This document shows positions 10,994 through 34,923 of a stretch of DNA of 64,000 nucleotides, piece after piece (the first letter of the stretch is position 1; each line of letters starts with the position of its first letter). A model generated the notes under the pieces. It saw nothing but the letters and a program-made list of their open reading frames with translations, was not told where the DNA came from and did no database searches. Both the position numbers and the translations under genes were made by a program. This stretch comes from Thermoplasmatales archaeon I-plasma (GTDB taxonomy: Archaea; Thermoplasmatota; Thermoplasmata; Thermoplasmatales; GCA-001856825), in the NCBI GenBank assembly GCA_001856825.1, contig ATMD01000001.1, positions 114,581 to 178,580 of the forward strand, read 5' to 3'.

Positions 10994-11065
10994 GGGCTGG
11001 TAGATCAGCGGAAGATCGCCTCCTTGGCATGGAGGAGGCCCGGGGTTCAAATCCCCGCCAGTCCA
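10994..11065 (+). tRNA. tRNA-Ala (anticodon GGC)
   Basis: A 72-nt cloverleaf folded by hand: GGGCTGG/TA/GATC-AGCGGAA-GATC/G/CCTCC-TTGGCAT-GGAGG/AGGCC/CGGGG-TTCAAAT-CCCCG/CCAGTCC/A. The G3:U70 alanine identity pair is present. No CCA is encoded. Confidence 0.92.
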
Positions 11066-20836: not shown

Positions 20837-20910
20837 GGCCGGGATGGGGTAGCGGTGCATCCTTGGGGACTGTGGATCCCCGGACCCGGGTTCAAATCCC
20901 GGTCCCGGCC
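20837..20910 (+). tRNA. tRNA-His (anticodon GUG) with genome-encoded G-1
   Basis: Acceptor stem GCCGGGA/TCCCGGC, with an extra 5' G (20837) pairing with discriminator C (20910), a His-specific feature. Anticodon arm GGGGA-CTGTGGA-TCCCC. T arm CCGGG-TTCAAAT-CCCGG. The D/variable region numbering is slightly atypical. Confidence 0.85.
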
Positions 20911-20971
20911 CTATTCTAACCGAAAAGGGGAGGAGGCAATGCATCGCCTTCAAGCGTGGAATCGGGATGAC

Positions 20972-25532: not shown

Positions 25533-27164
25533 ATGACCGAGATAGTTCTCACTGCCGATCGCGGTTCATTTACCGACTACGGTGGAGTCTCTACTCTTGG
25601 ATACGTGGCATGCATGCCCGATAGAATTGTACCAAAATTGATGATGGATGCTTTATTTACCCCCCGAATAAAATATAAATCCAATGGGGAGGCTATTGTT
25701 GCACCGTATGCATTGAGGAAGGTCGAAGCAATACTACTCAAAGCCGGTTTCAAGGATGTAGTGGTGGCACCTCCAGAGGCCCTTGGAAAGGTGGTTGACA
25801 AGGAAACCAGGCTCTTAGGAATAACTGTGCACGACCCTTACGGACTAAGCCCAGTCTCATTCAAACTGACTATGCTATTTGGGGGTGGACCAGCATGGAA
25901 CGCCACCTTCTTCAACGATCTATCACAGGAAATTTGGAGGCTAAGGAAAAAATATAATTTCAAGGTTTTTGCGGGAGGCCCGGCGACCTGGCAGCTTGCC
26001 CTAGAAAGACCGGATTGGTTGGATACTATTTATAACGGAGAGGCAGAGGTCGATCTACCGAAATATGTCAGCAGCGTATATCAAGGATCAGATGTTCCAA
26101 AGGACGTAAGGGGTAGGGACGCAAAGGTGGAGGAGATCCCAACAATAGTGAAACCAGCGAGACTGGGAGAGGTTCAGGTAACTAGGGGTTGTCCTAGAGG
26201 TTGCCAGTTTTGCTCTATAACACCTGAAACCTACAGAACGATACCACTGGAGGACGTACTGAAAGAAGTAAAGCTAAATATCGATGCAGGAGCGAGAAAC
26301 ATAGAGCTCTTGACTGACGATATCCTCCTCTACGGATCGAAGAGGCTTGCGATAAATAGGGAGGCTATAGTAACACTTTTCAGAAAGGTGAAAGAAGAGG
26401 GAGCGGAACAGATATTTTTCCCGCACATTTCTTCTCCTGCTGTGGTTGAAAGTCCTGAAACAGTAATGGAAATATCTGATATAGCAGAATACAAAAAGCA
26501 CAGGGCGGAAGCTCCCGTAGTTGGGCTTGAAAGTGGCAGCACAAGAATCATCTCCAAGTACATGAGAGGAAAGCCTTTCCCGTACAGACCGGAGGACTGG
26601 GGGAAGGTAATAATAGAATCAACGGGGATTCTCAACGATGCGTACATCACGCCTGCTTATACCATGACAGTTGGATTCCCTGATGAAACTGATGAAGACG
26701 TACAGCAGAGCATTGATTTAGTCCATAAACTATTTGACTCAGGAGGCAAGGCGTGGGTTTTCCCGCTGCCGGTCATTCCAATTACGTCTACAAAGATAAG
26801 TAGGAATCCTTTTCCAGAGCTTGAAAAACTTCCGGGTAAGTACTGGGAATTGTTGTACGTAAGCTGGAAGAAGGACCTCGAATTGACCAGGATAGTACTT
26901 CCGCAAATGACAGAGCGGATGAATAGCAAAATAACAAAGACCATAGTGAACACTGTTATGGATCACACTTTTTCCAACATTGAGGGTGTGTTTAAAGAAC
27001 TAATGGAAACAAGAGGTAGAAAGTCATATGAATACAGCACGGTCGAGCTTAACAGCGTGATTGGCATATTTAGGAGCATTTACCGGTTGATGTTAGTCTT
27101 CTCGAGAAGAGGTACGGACTACATTGGGAAATCAACCTCTTCAAGCTCAGGATCGTCAACTTAG
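25533..27164 (+). CDS. Radical SAM protein with N-terminal B12-binding-like (Rossmann) domain, COG1032-like
   Basis: CX3CX2C cluster motif VTRGCPRGCQFCSI at about aa 220. The preceding flavodoxin-like region reads LLGITVHDPYG, FKVFAGGPATW. There are only 4 Cys in the whole protein. The tail is poly-Ser (STSSSSGSST). Confidence 0.75.
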   Translation: MTEIVLTADRGSFTDYGGVSTLGYVACMPDRIVPKLMMDALFTPRIKYKSNGEAIVAPYALRKVEAILLKAGFKDVVVAPPEALGKVVDKETRLLGITVHDPYGLSPVSFKLTMLFGGGPAWNATFFNDLSQEIWRLRKKYNFKVFAGGPATWQLALERPDWLDTIYNGEAEVDLPKYVSSVYQGSDVPKDVRGRDAKVEEIPTIVKPARLGEVQVTRGCPRGCQFCSITPETYRTIPLEDVLKEVKLNIDAGARNIELLTDDILLYGSKRLAINREAIVTLFRKVKEEGAEQIFFPHISSPAVVESPETVMEISDIAEYKKHRAEAPVVGLESGSTRIISKYMRGKPFPYRPEDWGKVIIESTGILNDAYITPAYTMTVGFPDETDEDVQQSIDLVHKLFDSGGKAWVFPLPVIPITSTKISRNPFPELEKLPGKYWELLYVSWKKDLELTRIVLPQMTERMNSKITKTIVNTVMDHTFSNIEGVFKELMETRGRKSYEYSTVELNSVIGIFRSIYRLMLVFSRRGTDYIGKSTSSSSGSST

Positions 27165-29800: not shown

Positions 29801-29929
29801 TCTGAAGAGCAAATGCGTATCCAGATAAGCGGTAATTAATCTACTTCTACGGTTACAATTCAATATTGAAGTGACGATAACACAGGCTTTTCACGGAAAA
29901 TTATTAAATTTCGCTCATATTACCAAACA

Positions 29930-30869
29930 GTGAAGGGTAAAAAAATTCTAGTAACAGGTGCAGCAGGTTTTATTGGTTCCAACCTTGTCGAGTCTTTGAT
30001 AAAGGATAATTTTGTGATAGGAGTCGATAACCTATCGTCAGGAAAGAAGGAGAATTTAAGAGATTTTCTTGAGTCAAAGAATTTTGCCTTCAAAAAGATT
30101 GACGTGAAGGATACAGACTTGCTGAAAAAGGAAATGGACGGGGTAGATTTGGTATTTCATTTGAGCGCCAATGCAGACGTAAGGAAGGGGTATGGCGATT
30201 CTGGCGTTGATTTCAGGGAGAATGTTCAGGCAACTCTTTCCGTGCTGGAGGCGATGCGTTCCAAGGACGTAAGAGAAATAATATTCTCCTCTACCAGTAC
30301 AGTATACGGCAATGCCGCAATCATTCCTACTCCTGAGTTCTACGGCCCTTTAATGCCGATATCACATTACGGCGCTTCAAAGCTCGGTGCGGAAGCATTC
30401 ATTTTCAGTTTCTCGAGCAACTATGGGTTCAAGCCATCCGTATTCAGGTTTGCAAATGTTGTAGGAAGGAGGGGGACACATGGCGCAATAGCAGATTTCA
30501 TTGCTAAGCTGAAGAAGGACAGGACAACTCTAGATGTCTTGGGGGACGGAACGCAGAAGAAATCATACATTTACGTAGATGATTGTGTCAACGGGATGAT
30601 ACTCCTACACGGGAAGGAGGATGGGCTGTTCAACCCTAGGTACTAGGGGAAGAACATCTGTGAGGGAGATTGCAGAGATGACTGTAGAGAGATTTTCTCC
30701 GGGTGCGAGGATAAATTACGTTGGTGGTCCAGGAGGAGCAGGATGGGTTGGCGATGTCAAATATGCCGGTCTTGACATCACTAAGGCGCAGAGGAACGGA
30801 TGGGAATACATGATTGACAGCAATGAAGCTGTAAGAAAGGCAATAGAAGATGCAGTGGCAAACACATGA
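29930..30869 (+). pseudogene. NAD-dependent epimerase/dehydratase (GalE-like) interrupted by a 1-nt frameshift
   Basis: The N-terminal part (29930-30646) has ILVTGAAGFIGSNLV and the YGASK catalytic motif. The C-terminal part continues in another frame (30621-30869: LGTRGRTSVREIAE...). Deleting one C from the CCC run at 30634-30636 gives the contiguous ...GLFNLGTRGRTSVREIAE... Confidence 0.85.
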
Positions 30870-31666
30870 AAATCCCCACGTTTGTTTCGTCTCTTGACAA
30901 CATAATGAAGGGAGGCATACCTGAGGGTAGTTCAGTACTGCTCATTGGGGAACCGGGAGCAGGCAACTTCGAATTTTCGATGACTTCAGCAGCCAACCTA
31001 GCAAGGGCACTTGATGGAAAAGTTCCCAGAGGGTTGGAGAACTTTGATGTTAGATTCCCGGCAGGTATACTTTACGTAACGTTTTCAAAACCAGGGGATG
31101 AGATAATGCGTATACTTTCACTTTCCCTTGAAGAGGGTCTTGCGTCCAGCCTCAGGAAACAGATATCCATTCTAGATTTCTCAAGGCTCTACTACTCCCA
31201 GACACAAGTGCCTTCCTCGTGGATCGGTGGCAGCACCATTAGGGACAGGGAAAACATCATTTCATCTTTCATCAAGGAAATAGAGAAGGGAGGAAAGGAC
31301 AAGCTCATAATAATAGATTCATTCACAGACCTGATAACGAGCAAGTTCCTTGATGAGAAGACTCTTTTTGACATATCCAGGGGGCTATCAAGAGCAAGCA
31401 AGATGTGGAATTCAGTTGTTTACGTACTGATGACATCTGGCATAGTGGATAAGAGGGCAGAGAACATACTTATGGAGATTTTTGACGGAACCCTGCTGTT
31501 TGAATGGAACACAACTGAGAAGTCGAGCAAGAGGAAGAGATACATGACAATACCGAGATTCACTGGAGTATTACCGGTTATAGAGAGGGAGAAGATAGAG
31601 CGATTTGACACTGAATTTGATTACAAGACCGGCATGATAGTACTGAACACCACGAAGGTGAAATGA
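30866..31666 (+). CDS. KaiC/RadA-like protein with degenerate Walker A (predicted inactive)
   Basis: GGIPEGSSVLLIGEPGAGNFEFS: the Lys-Thr of GxxGxGKT is replaced by Asn-Phe, and there is no Glu pair after strand 2 (YVTFSKPGDE). A Walker B-like KLIIIDSF is retained. Its ATGA overlaps the upstream stop. Confidence 0.75.
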   Translation: MKIPTFVSSLDNIMKGGIPEGSSVLLIGEPGAGNFEFSMTSAANLARALDGKVPRGLENFDVRFPAGILYVTFSKPGDEIMRILSLSLEEGLASSLRKQISILDFSRLYYSQTQVPSSWIGGSTIRDRENIISSFIKEIEKGGKDKLIIIDSFTDLITSKFLDEKTLFDISRGLSRASKMWNSVVYVLMTSGIVDKRAENILMEIFDGTLLFEWNTTEKSSKRKRYMTIPRFTGVLPVIEREKIERFDTEFDYKTGMIVLNTTKVK

Positions 31667-32358
31667 TGTCTATTGTTGATACAGGAGTGGACGGATTGAA
31701 TACGATGCTGGGAGGAGGAATCCCAGAGGGTAGCTCAACCCTTGTCCTGGGAAGCTACGGAGCAGGAAAGACGACAATGGGAATACACTTCGCCTACAGG
31801 GGGGCATCTAAAGGCGAGAACGTTGTCTACTTCACGCTAGAGGAGAGGAAGGAGAGCATAATACAGGCATCAAAAACGTATAATATGGATTTCTCGCCTT
31901 ATCTCGACAATAATCTATTCCTTCTGAATCCAGATACTATAGAATTTGTAGAGATGCTCAAGACAGAAGGCAATTTCAAGTCAAGCATAGAGTCACTCAA
32001 GCCGAAGAGGATCGTGATAGACAGCATATCTCTGATCCTGATGGTTGCAGAAAATGATGTCCTGAAGAGGAACGTGATTATCAACTTGTCCAACGCCCTT
32101 AGGGATATGAAGGTAACATCTCTCCTCCTGGCTGAATCGAACGTATCCTTCCCGTACTCGAGCAGAGACGGTCTTGCTGAATTCGTGTCAGATGGCGTTA
32201 TTTCACTGCAGAACAAGTACGATGACAGCATTGGGTCTACAACCAGCATAATAAGGGTCTTAAAGATGAGGCTTACAAACCACGACAGGAAGGCAAGGCC
32301 TTACAGCATTGGATCAAACGGACTCGAGATACTTGCGAAATCTGAATTATTCCAGTAA
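31663..32358 (+). CDS. KaiC/RadA-like ATPase (intact motifs)
   Basis: GGGIPEGSSTLVLGSYGAGKTTMG (Walker A), VVYFTLEERKES (catalytic EE) and RIVIDSISLI (Walker B). It overlaps the preceding paralog by an ATGA. Confidence 0.85.
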   Translation: MMSIVDTGVDGLNTMLGGGIPEGSSTLVLGSYGAGKTTMGIHFAYRGASKGENVVYFTLEERKESIIQASKTYNMDFSPYLDNNLFLLNPDTIEFVEMLKTEGNFKSSIESLKPKRIVIDSISLILMVAENDVLKRNVIINLSNALRDMKVTSLLLAESNVSFPYSSRDGLAEFVSDGVISLQNKYDDSIGSTTSIIRVLKMRLTNHDRKARPYSIGSNGLEILAKSELFQ

Positions 32359-32363
32359 GCTCT

Positions 32364-33053
32364 CTAGAACAGTCCGAACTCTACCTTTTTTCCAGGAGCC
32401 CTTATCCAGTAGTCGCCTATCTCTTCCGTATTCTTTACATGAGTTCCAGCACATGCGCAAACGTCTAGGCCTTCAATCTCTACCACTGAAACTTCGTCTA
32501 TGGATTTTGGGAGCCTCTCGAGGTTGCATCTTGCCATCAGCTTTGGGTCCAGTTCGTTCCTCTTTACGAAATATCTCTTCAGGGAACGGGGAATCTTGCT
32601 TATATTGAATGCTTCATCTGCCAGCACTATTTCTGTTGAATCACTCTCAATGTATCCATATCCTGGGAAGACCTCTGTAACCAGTGATTTGTATCCATCC
32701 TTGAATATCACTGCGGAAATGGCGTGCTGAAGGGTGTGCATTTTCATTATTTTGTACCTTCTTTCCCAGTCCACGATAAGTTTCCCTTCTTTGATGTCCA
32801 CTTCTTCGCTGGAAAGATGAATGACATTCTTTCCCTTCTTTTTGACGTTATGGATGGGTATCTTGATATCACCAGAAATGAGCAATCCCCTGTCGCCTGG
32901 CTGTCCACCGCCTTGGTAGTGCATTATGGTCCTGTCAAGAACGTATCCGCCGCCTTCAAATCCCAGAACCTTTACGTCTATCTCCCTGACGTACGATCCA
33001 TCTATACCCTGGAGGTAGATTAATTGACCTCCATCACTCAATAAATGTTTCAC
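32364..33053 (-). CDS. AlaX-like tRNA editing-domain protein (COG2872-type), paralog 2
   Basis: HxxxH (MHTLQHAIS) and CxxxH (CACAGTHVKNT) zinc motifs. The N-terminal barrel region aligns with paralog 1 (VLDRTIMHYQGGGQPGD versus [17 protein letters not shown]). Confidence 0.75.
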   Translation of the reverse strand: MKHLLSDGGQLIYLQGIDGSYVREIDVKVLGFEGGGYVLDRTIMHYQGGGQPGDRGLLISGDIKIPIHNVKKKGKNVIHLSSEEVDIKEGKLIVDWERRYKIMKMHTLQHAISAVIFKDGYKSLVTEVFPGYGYIESDSTEIVLADEAFNISKIPRSLKRYFVKRNELDPKLMARCNLERLPKSIDEVSVVEIEGLDVCACAGTHVKNTEEIGDYWIRAPGKKVEFGLF

Positions 33054-33639
33054 CTTTCTTGTAGTTGCTCTTGATATCGTCTATTATAATGTCCCTGTTC
33101 CTCCTCAACTGGCTCTCGTACCATTTTGATATCACGTTCAGCAGTATCTCTTCAAGTTCCTCTATCTTTGCCGCCTTCATTGGGGATTCATAGAGGATGT
33201 ACTGGGTAAAGTACCTGTGCCAACCTGTATACCTGTCGTACTTCTCCCCCTCTGAAAACTCGAAAAGAACTGAAATGCTTTCGTTCTCTTCCTTCTTGTA
33301 GATGATCTTGAGAGCATCTCCTACCCTTTCTACTTCCCCGGCAGTATCCTTGAATGATATGTTGCTCACATTCTCGAAGAAGAAGTCATTGCTCAACTGG
33401 AATTTTTCCGGGTAGCTAGTGAATTCGAGCCACTTGTTTGGCGGGGGGTCTATAGTGAAATGTATGTTCTGCTTGTTGAATCTCACCCAGGTCTGCCACA
33501 AATCAGTGAGGATTCTCTTGTTCATTTCTGATTTCTTGCCTGTGGTGAGTGAACTTTCCTTCATTACTTCCTTCTCTTTCTTAGTGAGTTGCTCATCGAG
33601 CTTAGAAAACCAGTCCTTAGGTTGCTCTGTTGCCGGCAT
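33034..33639 (-). CDS. Hypothetical protein
   Basis: 201-aa ORF with no recognised motif. Its 3' end overlaps the AlaX-like paralog 2 start by 20 nt, suggesting co-transcription. Confidence 0.5.
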   Translation of the reverse strand: MPATEQPKDWFSKLDEQLTKKEKEVMKESSLTTGKKSEMNKRILTDLWQTWVRFNKQNIHFTIDPPPNKWLEFTSYPEKFQLSNDFFFENVSNISFKDTAGEVERVGDALKIIYKKEENESISVLFEFSEGEKYDRYTGWHRYFTQYILYESPMKAAKIEELEEILLNVISKWYESQLRRNRDIIIDDIKSNYKKGETFIE

Positions 33640-34607: not shown

Positions 34608-34682
34608 ATGCTCCGGCCGGGATTTGGACCCGGGTCGTCGGCTCGAAAGGCCGATATGCTTGGCCGGACTACACCACCGGAG
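34608..34682 (-). tRNA. tRNA-Glu (anticodon UUC)
   Basis: The reverse complement folds as GCTCCGG/TG/GTGT-AGTCCGGCCAA-GCAT/A/TCGGC-CTTTCGA-GCCGA/CGAC/CCGGG-TCCAAAT-CCCGG/CCGGAGC/A. A TTTATA element sits ~26 nt upstream on the minus strand (about 34709-34716). Confidence 0.9.
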
Positions 34683-34923
34683 CTGAACGAACGATAACAT
34701 CGCTTGTTATAAATTATTAGCGTTCAAGTAGCTTAGATAGGTGAAGTAGCCCCAGAGTACTGGAAAATACTTCCCCGGTAAATGAAATCAAGAACTAAGT
34801 CCAAGAATGAAAAAGTTACGCTTTTGGGTAATTTAAATAGAAATTATGTTAATTTAAAGTCGAAATACGACAAAATTAAAGTAATCATAATCCCTTACAA
34901 AACGAAACTCTGAGGGAACAAGA

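Follow-up and report, generated by a model that had tools for sequence, protein, structure and literature searches.

Organization of the locus

The window, the stretch of 64 kb that was analyzed, contains two adjacent genes for KaiC-like proteins, which follow an epimerase gene on the same strand (Table 1). The product of the first gene (A) is identical to EQB65979.1, annotated as 'HTR-like protein' of Thermoplasmatales archaeon I-plasma, and that of the second (B) is identical to EQB65980.1. The two genes overlap by the sequence ATGA at 31663-31666, as read directly, and a second ATGA at 30866-30869 joins the stop codon of the epimerase gene to the start codon of A. Such overlaps are frequent in prokaryotic operons and are nothing unusual alone. 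A Shine-Dalgarno-like GGTGA is located within the 3′ end of A, and the junction AAGGTGA[A/G]ATGATG is kept in four related loci (L001, L005, L008 and L010). This motif and the ATGA overlap suggest that the translation of B is coupled to that of A.

Table 1. Features of the epimerase-A-B locus, in coordinates of the window
Feature	Position	Strand	Description and basis
TATA/BRE-like element	29899..29912	+	AT-rich, AAATTATTAAAT; ~20-30 nt 5′ of the epimerase GTG start
NAD-dependent NDP-sugar 4-epimerase gene	29930..30869	+	extended SDR, Gal4E type; Pfam, structure match
Extra C in CCC run	30634	+	shifts the epimerase frame
Gene A (ORF A)	30866..31666	+	266 aa, KaiC/RecA-fold pseudo-ATPase; read from sequence
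Degenerate P-loop of A, G28-F37	30947..30976	+	GEPGAGNFEF; family signature and hhalign mapping
A-specific conserved insert, D104-W119	31175..31222	+	DFSRLYYSQTQVPSSW; hhalign gap in B
Shine-Dalgarno-like GGTGA	31657..31661	+	within the 3′ end of A, just 5′ of the B ATG; read from sequence
Gene B (ORF B)	31663..32358	+	231 aa, canonical single-domain KaiC-like ATPase
Walker A of B, G30-T37	31750..31773	+	GSYGAGKT; read from sequence, alignment
Catalytic Glu pair of B, E60-E61	31840..31845	+	in TLEER; alignment to KaiC CI
Walker B of B, R116-S121	32008..32025	+	RIVIDS; read from sequence, alignment
K201-M-R203 of B	32263..32271	+	KaiC 'K-x-R' motif; aligned to 'LKFRG' of KaiC

The upstream gene matches the Epimerase family (PF01370, E 3e-46), and the solved structure closest to its intact 312-aa ortholog is 8rdg, the GDP-sugar 4-epimerase of P. 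horikoshii (E 7e-80). In the window, this gene is split into two ORFs (29930..30646 and 30621..30869), and only an 82-aa C-terminal fragment overlaps the start of A as the sequence reads. The window has AACCCTAGG at the position of the extra C, where L007, L008 and L010 have AA-CCTAGG, and the epimerase gene is intact in all relatives examined. Six of six contigs with 99.8-99.9% identity across the operon do not have the extra C, which makes an error of sequencing or assembly the probable cause; otherwise, the C would be a private mutation. A programmed frameshift was rejected, since these six contigs simply lack the additional nucleotide. The proposal in the preliminary description that all three genes are co-translated therefore fails for the window as read, in which the epimerase frame is broken, and the break is private to this record. 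The TATA/BRE-like element upstream of the epimerase gene is preserved in L008, and in part in L010, although the intergenic DNA around it has diverged. It is a putative promoter of the three-gene operon, whose leader would be short or absent.

Active sites of the two paralogs

The Pfam KaiC domain (PF06745) spans all of B (E 8e-52). B also matches the NCBIfam model KaiC_arch_3 at E 4e-53, under the cut-off of that model, and solved KaiC structures up to E 2e-44. The residues expected of an active member are present, namely GSYGAGKT, E60-E61 and D120. The two glutamates are aligned to E77/E78 of KaiC CI. R116 and D120 are invariant among 12 aligned B orthologs, and K201 and R203 are likewise invariant in the ortholog alignment; the K-x-R motif of KaiC acts in trans and comprises a Lys and the Arg finger. 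Of the 63 partner B proteins in the loci listed, 59 retain GK[ST]. In the Methanocorpusculum-type pairs, B has GRT instead of GKT and is devoid of the EE pair, so that the module does not turn over ATP in every lineage.

A does not conform to the Walker A consensus GxxxxGK[ST], as it reads GEPGAGNF. In its GEPGAGNFEFS sequence (aa 28-38), the glycines are retained and Lys-Thr is replaced, and the Glu-Phe that comes next is invariant throughout the family. The hhalign alignment of A with B placed K36/T37 of B on N34/F35 of A and the Arg finger R203 on T233. E60/E61 corresponded to S74/K75, so that the catalytic Glu pair is gone, and the Walker B Asp is retained as D151. The motifs and this mapping bear out the earlier description of a paralog pair in which one active site is destroyed and the other intact.

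In A, the Pfam KaiC match is limited to aa 3-40 (E 4e-10), and BLASTP between A and B detected the shared N-terminal motif only (E 2e-7). The paralogy nevertheless extends beyond this motif, because a profile-profile comparison of the A and B families aligned 201 columns (probability 98.7, E 4e-16). For A, AF2 gave a model (pTM 0.80) that resembles KaiC-like structures, with PH0186, SSO2452, KaiC CI and FlaH (4yds) as its top Foldseek matches. The KaiC-type RecA-like fold is thus assigned to B by the full-length PF06745 match and to A by hhalign and the AF2 model. The insert D104-W119, the hallmark of the A family, is absent from B. Its residues D104, S106, Y109, P116 and W119 are nearly invariant among ~110 members, and it is a candidate for a partner-binding surface.

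Conservation and genomic neighborhoods

We gathered the family loci by a degenerate DNA pattern for GGxPxG-9x-GxGxxEFxxT, which matched 14 of 18 known loci, once each. The scan of GTDB with this pattern yielded at least 120 loci, and the counts given here are samples, not a census. A word-indexed protein search with a diverse profile returned mostly canonical KaiC sequences, and the A family grew by only four members. The Walker A Lys was found in 0 of ~110 A-family members (>110 members in ~120 species genomes, among the loci listed). The family shares the signature GxxGxG-xx-EF, and E36, F37, D104, P116, D151, W214, R223 and R225 are invariant together with W119. The dN/dS ratio was 0.030 for A versus 0.035 for B; purifying selection on A is as strong as on B, and the disrupted motifs are conserved across the orthologs under this selection. 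The preliminary description had named orthologs retaining GKT as the sign of a local decay product, and none of the ~110 in-family members retains it. The alignments indicate that the catalytic residues of A were lost long ago and not by local decay.

Outside Halobacteria and Hadarchaeota, B is located immediately 3′ of A in 62 of the 67 loci listed. With downstream DNA available, this holds for 51/56 loci of Thermoplasmatota and other Euryarchaeota and for 11/11 Methanomicrobia-like loci, again among those listed. The gap from the A stop to the B start is mostly -4, -14 or within a few nt. The distance matrices of A and B correlated with r = 0.92 over 45 pairs, a value reached in 0 of 2000 Mantel permutations, although such a mirror-tree correlation is confounded by the species phylogeny. 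The neighborhood conservation that had been suggested as a check therefore holds: the genes are adjacent and mostly overlapping across Thermoplasmatota and Methanomicrobia-like lineages, and the proteins co-diverge.

Halobacteria are the exception. Among the 46 halobacterial loci listed (~50 species), B is adjacent in one and A is solo in 45. A can thus persist without a neighboring partner, and B could be encoded elsewhere in these genomes. As ~50 species of Halobacteria carry A without an adjacent B, the 'obligate' hetero-oligomer that had been predicted is too strong a term for the whole A family. A basic residue occupies position 231 of A, the equivalent of KaiC K224, in 60 of 62 listed members from pair-bearing groups, and this position is Q or E in solo Halobacteria. 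The correlation with pairing is imperfect, because L071, the one halobacterial locus with B, has Ser at position 231. Position 233, equivalent to the Arg finger, is T or I in the clade of the window, and A therefore cannot fully complete the B site there.

Linkage to the epimerase gene was observed in 17 of the loci listed, which belong only to Thermoplasmatales and DHVE2. The 4-nt overlap between the epimerase gene and A is present in 14 of the 17, and the apparent overlap is larger in L021, L037 and L049. The link that the preliminary description had left unexplained is thus real but confined to one clade and not general to the module. Elsewhere, the pair adjoins type-IV-pilus-like (T4P-like) ATPase/TadC genes, DinB or a sensor kinase. 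T2SSE/T2SSF genes adjoin the A family in 12 of the loci listed; PilB3-type T2SSE and T2SSF (TadC) are found beside A-B pairs in 7 of 12 listed Methanomicrobia-like loci and in this context in 4 of 4 listed Hadarchaeota loci. The 64-kb window contains no T2SSE/T2SSF genes. A DinB-type polymerase gene lies 3′ of B on the same strand in ~12 Thermoplasmata MAGs among the loci listed, and A is followed by a MASE3-PAS histidine kinase, not by B, in two Euryarchaeota MAGs (L026 and L030). As the contexts are heterogeneous (T4P, DinB, histidine kinase and epimerase), no single output is established. We also saw genes for an Lhr helicase, a PD-(D/E)xK nuclease and CinA near the pair, each in single lineages only.

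A possible hetero-oligomer and its alternatives

ArlH (FlaH), which binds ArlI, is the KaiC-like protein of the archaellum motor. A has the same fold, as FlaH (4yds) is in the Foldseek matches, and its best NCBIfam match is ArlH, at E 1e-8 and far under the model cut-off. A is not an ArlH, because it scored 35 bits (B, 52) versus the equivalog cut-off of 215. Unlike A, ArlH has an intact Walker A, binds ATP with little turnover, and is a single protein located in arl operons, where it is the partner of a T2SSE-family ATPase. B aligns over its full length to both CI and CII of cyanobacterial KaiC, and the alignment takes in Walker A, the EE pair, Walker B and K-x-R. In contrast to the tandem CI-CII protein of ~500 aa, A (266 aa) and B (231 aa) are single-domain each, and the NCBIfam circ_KaiC model gave 90 bits versus a cut-off of 546. 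In passing, we noticed no kaiA or kaiB among the neighboring ORFs. By analogy, RecA-fold rings or dimers with both catalytic and non-catalytic subunits, such as F1/V1 alpha3beta3, Rad55-Rad57 and the RAD51 paralog complex BCDX2, may illustrate how a degenerate paralog works as an obligatory partner, forming the neighboring side of an interfacial nucleotide site; they are different families from A-B, and the likeness is one of working, not of membership.

A role as signal-transduction hubs has been proposed for archaeal KaiC-like ATPases and their inactivated homologs, 'iKaiC' (Makarova, Galperin & Koonin 2017, mBio, cited in PMC5847659). The A-B pair resembles the iKaiC systems, as far as they are outlined there, in the single-domain KaiC/RecA fold, the disrupted-site paralog, the variable contexts and the linkage to sensor/output genes, and A is conserved next to an active KaiC-like gene, Halobacteria excepted. 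In Methanomicrobia, VirB11/TadC can share a transcript with the KaiC families arCOG01172 and arCOG01173 (Makarova, Koonin & Albers 2016, PMC4858521), in agreement with the T2SSE/T2SSF neighbors of the A family. We infer that A and B are arCOG01172/arCOG01173, on which the supplements of PMC4858521 carry no text; the module in the window is joined to the epimerase gene instead of VirB11/TadC. Comparative genomics has already described inactivated KaiC paralogs and links between KaiC and T4P, and the A-B pair is widespread and catalogued, a genuine but not a new kind of system. No experimental work on the A family was found in literature searches including 'HTR-like protein', 'RAD55 family ATPase' and KaiC heteromers, which did not cover the 2017 mBio paper.

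We propose, with about an even chance of being right, that A and B form a hetero-oligomeric RecA-fold complex in which B is the engine and A a dead regulatory subunit. A and B constitute a conserved two-gene module and, with the upstream NDP-sugar 4-epimerase, a three-gene operon. B would be a working single-domain ATPase of the KaiC-like (RecA-fold) type, and it may also be an autokinase. In A, an ancient paralog, the fold is preserved together with the glycine-rich loop and the Walker B Asp, but the Walker A Lys/Thr, the Glu pair and, in the clade of the window, the Arg finger have been lost, and the conserved surface insert D104-W119 has been gained. Overlapping, Shine-Dalgarno-coupled translation would supply A and B in roughly equimolar amounts for a mixed oligomer, either an A-B heterodimer or an alternating ring, with ATP turnover at the B sites only. 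A would provide the neighboring-subunit face of the interface, including the conserved Lys/Arg231, and may serve as an adaptor linking the nucleotide or phosphorylation state of B to partner proteins. The module is portable: in several lineages it is found beside a PilB3-type secretion ATPase and TadC, much as ArlH is with ArlI, and in Thermoplasmatales and DHVE2 it shares an operon with the epimerase gene. The T4P-like and epimerase contexts may both point to the regulation of cell-surface processes. The residue losses and their conservation, the adjacency and the co-divergence are observed, and from them we infer the physical interaction, stoichiometry, ring geometry and output of A-B. The hetero-oligomer is weakened as a reading because Halobacteria carry A alone.

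The same solo loci (45 of the 46 halobacterial ones listed) favor the alternative that A and B are independent, A being a stand-alone scaffold or adaptor whose adjacency to B reflects co-regulation and not a complex, as does the histidine kinase that replaces B after A in two Euryarchaeota MAGs. We consider this unlikely in view of the tight, ancient adjacency with overlapping frames in several classes, the co-divergence of the proteins and the trans-acting Lys231, which is kept only where B is adjacent. Loss of the catalytic motifs in the A sequence of the window, and nothing more, would fit the view that A is a copy of B in local decay, on its way to a pseudogene. This explanation was rejected as practically impossible: the same substitutions are fixed in >110 species with a dN/dS of 0.03, the orthologs are full length with the family-specific insert, and the identical protein occurs on at least 24 contigs examined (89 blocks in the index listing).

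Two other arrangements retain a complex. A DNA-repair mediator heterodimer like Rad55-Rad57, the RAD51 paralogs or aRadC, modulating recombination or damage tolerance, is suggested by the name 'RAD55 family ATPase' that NCBI gives to family members, by the Sulfolobus RadA paralog SSO2452, the solved structure that the A sequence matches best (E 3e-6), and by the DinB-type gene after B in the ~12 listed Thermoplasmata MAGs and the single-lineage Lhr, PD-(D/E)xK and CinA neighbors. However, B matches KaiC far better, at E 1e-41 to 1e-44, than RadA/RadB/RecA, at E 1e-7 or weaker, and Pfam detected neither an HhH nor another DNA-binding N-terminal domain in A or B. No repair gene is near the pair in the window or its clade, DinB being restricted to another Thermoplasmata lineage, and the T4P, histidine-kinase and epimerase contexts are unrelated to repair; a repair function is thus quite unlikely. 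In bona fide KaiC, two RecA-like domains in tandem build rings that are stacked on each other. A and B might by the same token be homo-hexamers stacked like CI/CII, the dead ring being a platform without alternation within a ring, and B matches both KaiC domains while 1:1 coupling suits A6B6 as well as A3B3. KaiC-type rings, however, assemble around interface-bound nucleotide and A is devoid of the Walker A Lys/Thr, retention of Lys/Arg231 in pair-bearing lineages fits A facing B-bound nucleotide in one ring, and an A-B fusion protein is absent among the profile matches, which makes stacked rings distinctly improbable.

A further reading, which we regard as highly improbable, is a minimal 'split' KaiC-type phospho-switch in which A reads the state of B and passes it to the co-encoded enzyme. 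B would autophosphorylate or cycle nucleotide, and A would sense this via its glycine-rich loop, with the invariant Glu-Phe replacing Lys-Thr, and the conserved aromatic insert. If true, a GDP/UDP-sugar 4-epimerase, and hence surface glycan composition, would be controlled post-translationally in the clade of the window, and a type-IV-pilus-like ATPase would be controlled in other lineages.

The practical result for the window is small: A and B are a real, conserved pair, and the epimerase 'fragment' most probably comes from a 1-nt error in sequencing. Few regulatory ATPases of archaea have expanded as much, or are understood as poorly, as the KaiC-like proteins. A small, soluble dead/live pair conserved from Thermoplasmatota to Methanomicrobia would make the effects of an inactive paralog on the activity and output of KaiC-type ATPases tractable, and solo A in genetically tractable Halobacteria offers another way to approach them. 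If the pair is a real complex, GxxGxG-xx-EF would flag the dead subunit in proteins now called 'HTR-like protein', 'RAD55 family ATPase' or 'hypothetical'.

Two overlapping KaiC-like genes

The preliminary description had placed two adjacent KaiC-like paralogues here, the first (A) deprived of the P-loop Lys-Thr and the catalytic Glu pair that the second (B) keeps intact, and comparison of ORFs, motifs, profiles and models confirmed both points. A contains GGIPEGSSVLLIGEPGAGNFEFS, and B contains GGIPEGSSTLVLGSYGAGKTT, TLEER and RIVIDS. The two genes overlap by ATGA, as had been noted, and a GGTGA Shine-Dalgarno-like motif lies shortly 5′ of the B ATG. The encoded proteins are identical to EQB65979.1 (A) and EQB65980.1 (B) of Thermoplasmatales archaeon I-plasma. 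No further KaiC-like gene was found in the 64-kb window.

The Pfam KaiC profile (PF06745) matches B end to end (E 8e-52) and A in residues 1-40 only, and BLASTP similarity between A and B is confined to the N-terminal motif. Despite these short matches, the paralogy is full-length as judged by profile and model: hhalign aligned the A-family and B-family profiles over 201 columns (probability 98.7, E 4e-16), and the best structural matches to the AlphaFold2 model of A (pLDDT 75, pTM 0.80) are all KaiC-like, namely PH0186, SSO2452, KaiC CI, PH0284 and FlaH. In the profile alignment, the Walker A K36/T37 of B correspond to N34/F35 in A, the catalytic E60/E61 to S74/K75, and the Arg-finger equivalent R203 to T233. 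A retains the Walker B Asp (D151), is basic (R231) at the position equivalent to K224 of KaiC, and carries a conserved insert, D104-W119, that is absent from B.

Features of the window around the A-B pair
Feature	Position	Strand	Remarks
tRNA Ala-GGC	10994-11065		
tRNA His-GTG	20838-20911		
Epimerase fragments	29930..30646 and 30621..30869	+	238-aa and 82-aa ORFs; gene not intact in the window
A	30866..31666	+	ORF read from sequence, 266 aa
B	31663..32358	+	ORF read from sequence, 231 aa; overlaps A
AlaX-like editing-domain protein (tRNA_SAD)	32364-33053	-	convergent to B
201-aa ORF	33034-33639	-	overlaps AlaX-like ORF
tRNA Glu-TTC	34609-34683		

Apart from the three tRNA genes, no Rfam family reached the gathering score in the window, and the 201-aa ORF had no match in Pfam or NCBIfam. 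Thirteen Thermoplasmatales/DHVE2 loci among the matches listed retain it, together with the AlaX-like gene, 3′ of A-B. A 543-aa ORF (25533-27164), 5′ of NUDIX and acetyl-CoA-synthetase genes, may encode a radical-SAM enzyme, judging from a CxxxCxxC-like motif (GCPRGCQFC).

Inactivation across the A family

As the preliminary description had set out, orthologues elsewhere would be expected to keep GKT if A were a local decay product. None does: 25 close orthologue clusters (55-97% identity), all from Thermoplasmatales-type MAGs, read G[EDQ][PA]G[AS]G[NSG][FLYT]EF. A search of 1.84 billion representative proteins with the A-family profile retrieved 465 relatives, 153 of them at E <= 1e-10, which share the signature GG-x-P-x-GS..LL.GE.GAG-xx-EF-x-TS with Lys-Thr missing. 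Recast as a degenerate DNA pattern, this signature matched 14/18 known loci, once each, and found at least 120 loci when one genome per GTDB species was scanned; six of these are bacterial, all without a family-A ORF. Such an ORF is present in 127 of 138 loci (120 listed by the scan and 18 known beforehand).

Among the matches listed, the Walker A lysine occurs in 0 of ~110 family-A sequences and [ST]-[RK] takes the place of the Glu pair (T-A in Halobacteria); G33, E36, F37, D104, S106, P116, W119, D151, S152, W214, R223 and R225 are essentially invariant. When the window was compared with a 97%-identical relative, A gave a dN/dS of 0.030 and B one of 0.035. The residue losses shared across the family and the low dN/dS indicate that A is an old, constrained pseudo-ATPase, and we reject local decay on these grounds.

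Neighbors of A in archaeal genomes

The preliminary description had called for a check of neighborhood conservation. Genes flanking A were clustered across every A-bearing locus, and the resulting clusters received Pfam annotations. Outside Halobacteria and Hadarchaeota, adjacency is near-obligate among the matches listed: a canonical single-domain KaiC gene directly follows A on the same strand in 51/56 Thermoplasmatota/other euryarchaeal and 11/11 Methanomicrobia-like loci with downstream DNA, with B usually starting at -4, -14 or within a few bases of the A stop. Of the 63 B partners counted among these matches, 59 preserve GK[ST], the exceptions being of the Methanocorpusculum type. In three such loci from Methanocorpusculum/Methanomicrobiales (L015, L054 and L122), the B site is degenerate too, with GxxGxGRT and no Glu-Glu pair, so that both subunits may be non-catalytic in this lineage. 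Pairwise distances of A and B were strongly correlated over 45 non-redundant pairs (r = 0.92, reached by 0/2000 Mantel permutations), which fits co-inheritance as one module, shared species history also contributing.

Halobacteria carry A without an adjacent B in 45/46 of the listed loci, the sole exception being Halorutilus. Their A (~50 listed loci, e.g. L020, L058, L098 and L138) has 278 aa and GAG[AS]REF, and a beta-ribofuranosylaminobenzene-5′-phosphate-synthase-like GHMP kinase gene typically lies upstream of solo A, just upstream in 20 of the matches listed. A sister group in four Hadarchaeota loci (L024, L034, L055 and L088) retains the Walker A Lys-Ser (GESGAGKSEF) and K-x-R-G, but its Walker B Asp is exchanged for His, Leu or Ser and it lacks an adjacent B; it may be an intermediate toward the dead subunit or a parallel form. 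T2SSE/T2SSF genes always adjoin it. Among the matches listed, PilB3-type T2SSE and T2SSF (TadC) genes adjoin A in 12 loci (7/12 Methanomicrobia-like, 4/4 Hadarchaeota and one other); the 64-kb window has neither gene. A MASE3-PAS-HisKA-HATPase sensor kinase gene replaces B directly 3′ of A on the same strand in two Euryarchaeota MAG loci (L026 and L030), an arrangement that connects the dead subunit with two-component signalling.

The proposed link to an epimerase stood in part. An ATGA overlap joins the NAD-dependent NDP-sugar 4-epimerase gene to A, but in the window a single additional C, within a CCC run at 30634, breaks the epimerase gene. Six other contigs, 99.8-99.9% identical over the operon and encoding the identical A protein, all lack the extra C and have an intact 312-aa epimerase. 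The insertion is therefore private to this record and most likely a homopolymer sequencing error; a programmed frameshift or lineage feature was rejected. In the metagenome contig of a close relative (L007, 5438-6133), B is itself interrupted, leaving ORFs of 69 aa and 157 aa, probably through another assembly indel, which shows that frameshifts in these assemblies call for caution. Among the matches listed, an extended-SDR epimerase gene precedes A in 17 loci, all Thermoplasmatales or DHVE2/Aciduliprofundum, overlapping its start by 4 nt in 14 and apparently by more in the other three. Relatives conserve a TATA/BRE-like AT-rich element ~20-30 nt 5′ of the epimerase start, which suggests that epimerase, A and B probably belong to one three-gene operon whose leader is short or lacking. 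Although real and old, the association is a property of one clade and not of the A-B module.

Possible roles of the A-B pair

Sequence comparison shows a dead A and an intact B that are both constrained, co-inherited and translationally coupled. Because the nucleotide sites of RecA-fold ATPases lie between subunits, a mixed oligomer is the natural reading: only the B sites would be active, and A would contribute the neighboring face of the B nucleotide site. We give such a hetero-complex about an even chance. Modest support comes from position 231, equivalent to the trans-acting Lys, which among the matches listed is K or R in 60/62 members of pair-bearing groups, Q or E in solo Halobacteria and Ser in the Halorutilus exception. 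As a candidate partner-binding surface, the aromatic-rich, invariant D104-W119 insert stands out most.

That A and B act independently of each other seems unlikely to us, solo A in Halobacteria being its chief support. A Rad55-57-like repair mediator is suggested by the NCBI names of family members, the SSO2452 match of A and the DinB context (among the matches listed, about a dozen Thermoplasmata MAGs have A-B between TruD and a DinB-type polymerase); B is, however, far closer to KaiC than to RadA or RadB, and other genomic contexts lie outside repair, making this role quite improbable. Stacked homo-rings of A and of B, in the fashion of a split KaiC, we consider very unlikely. The preliminary description is confirmed in its observation and partly supported in its interpretation.

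Neither A nor B is a bona fide KaiC, since both consist of a single domain and fall well short of the equivalog cut-offs; nor is either an ArlH, the scores being 35 bits for A and 52 bits for B (cut-off 215). A 2017 paper reportedly described inactivated KaiC-like domains ('iKaiC') and put forward KaiC-like ATPases as archaeal signalling hubs. In the literature searched, we found no experimental study of the A-B pair and no report of an archaeal KaiC-like heteromer. A survey of type IV pili noted that the KaiC families arCOG01172 and arCOG01173 can be co-transcribed with VirB11/TadC in Methanomicrobia (Makarova, Koonin and Albers, 2016; PMC4858521), a remark that very probably concerns the A-B pair, although the arCOG assignment is putative.

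A-B is a widespread archaeal module, catalogued but uncharacterised. New here is the family signature, together with the demonstration that A lost its active site long ago and throughout the family, that its adjacency to B is near-obligate outside Halobacteria, that the epimerase link is limited to one clade, and that the epimerase 'fragment' traces to a private 1-nt insertion. Such a pair will not surprise a specialist, yet it offers a clean, small system for the function of dead KaiC paralogues.
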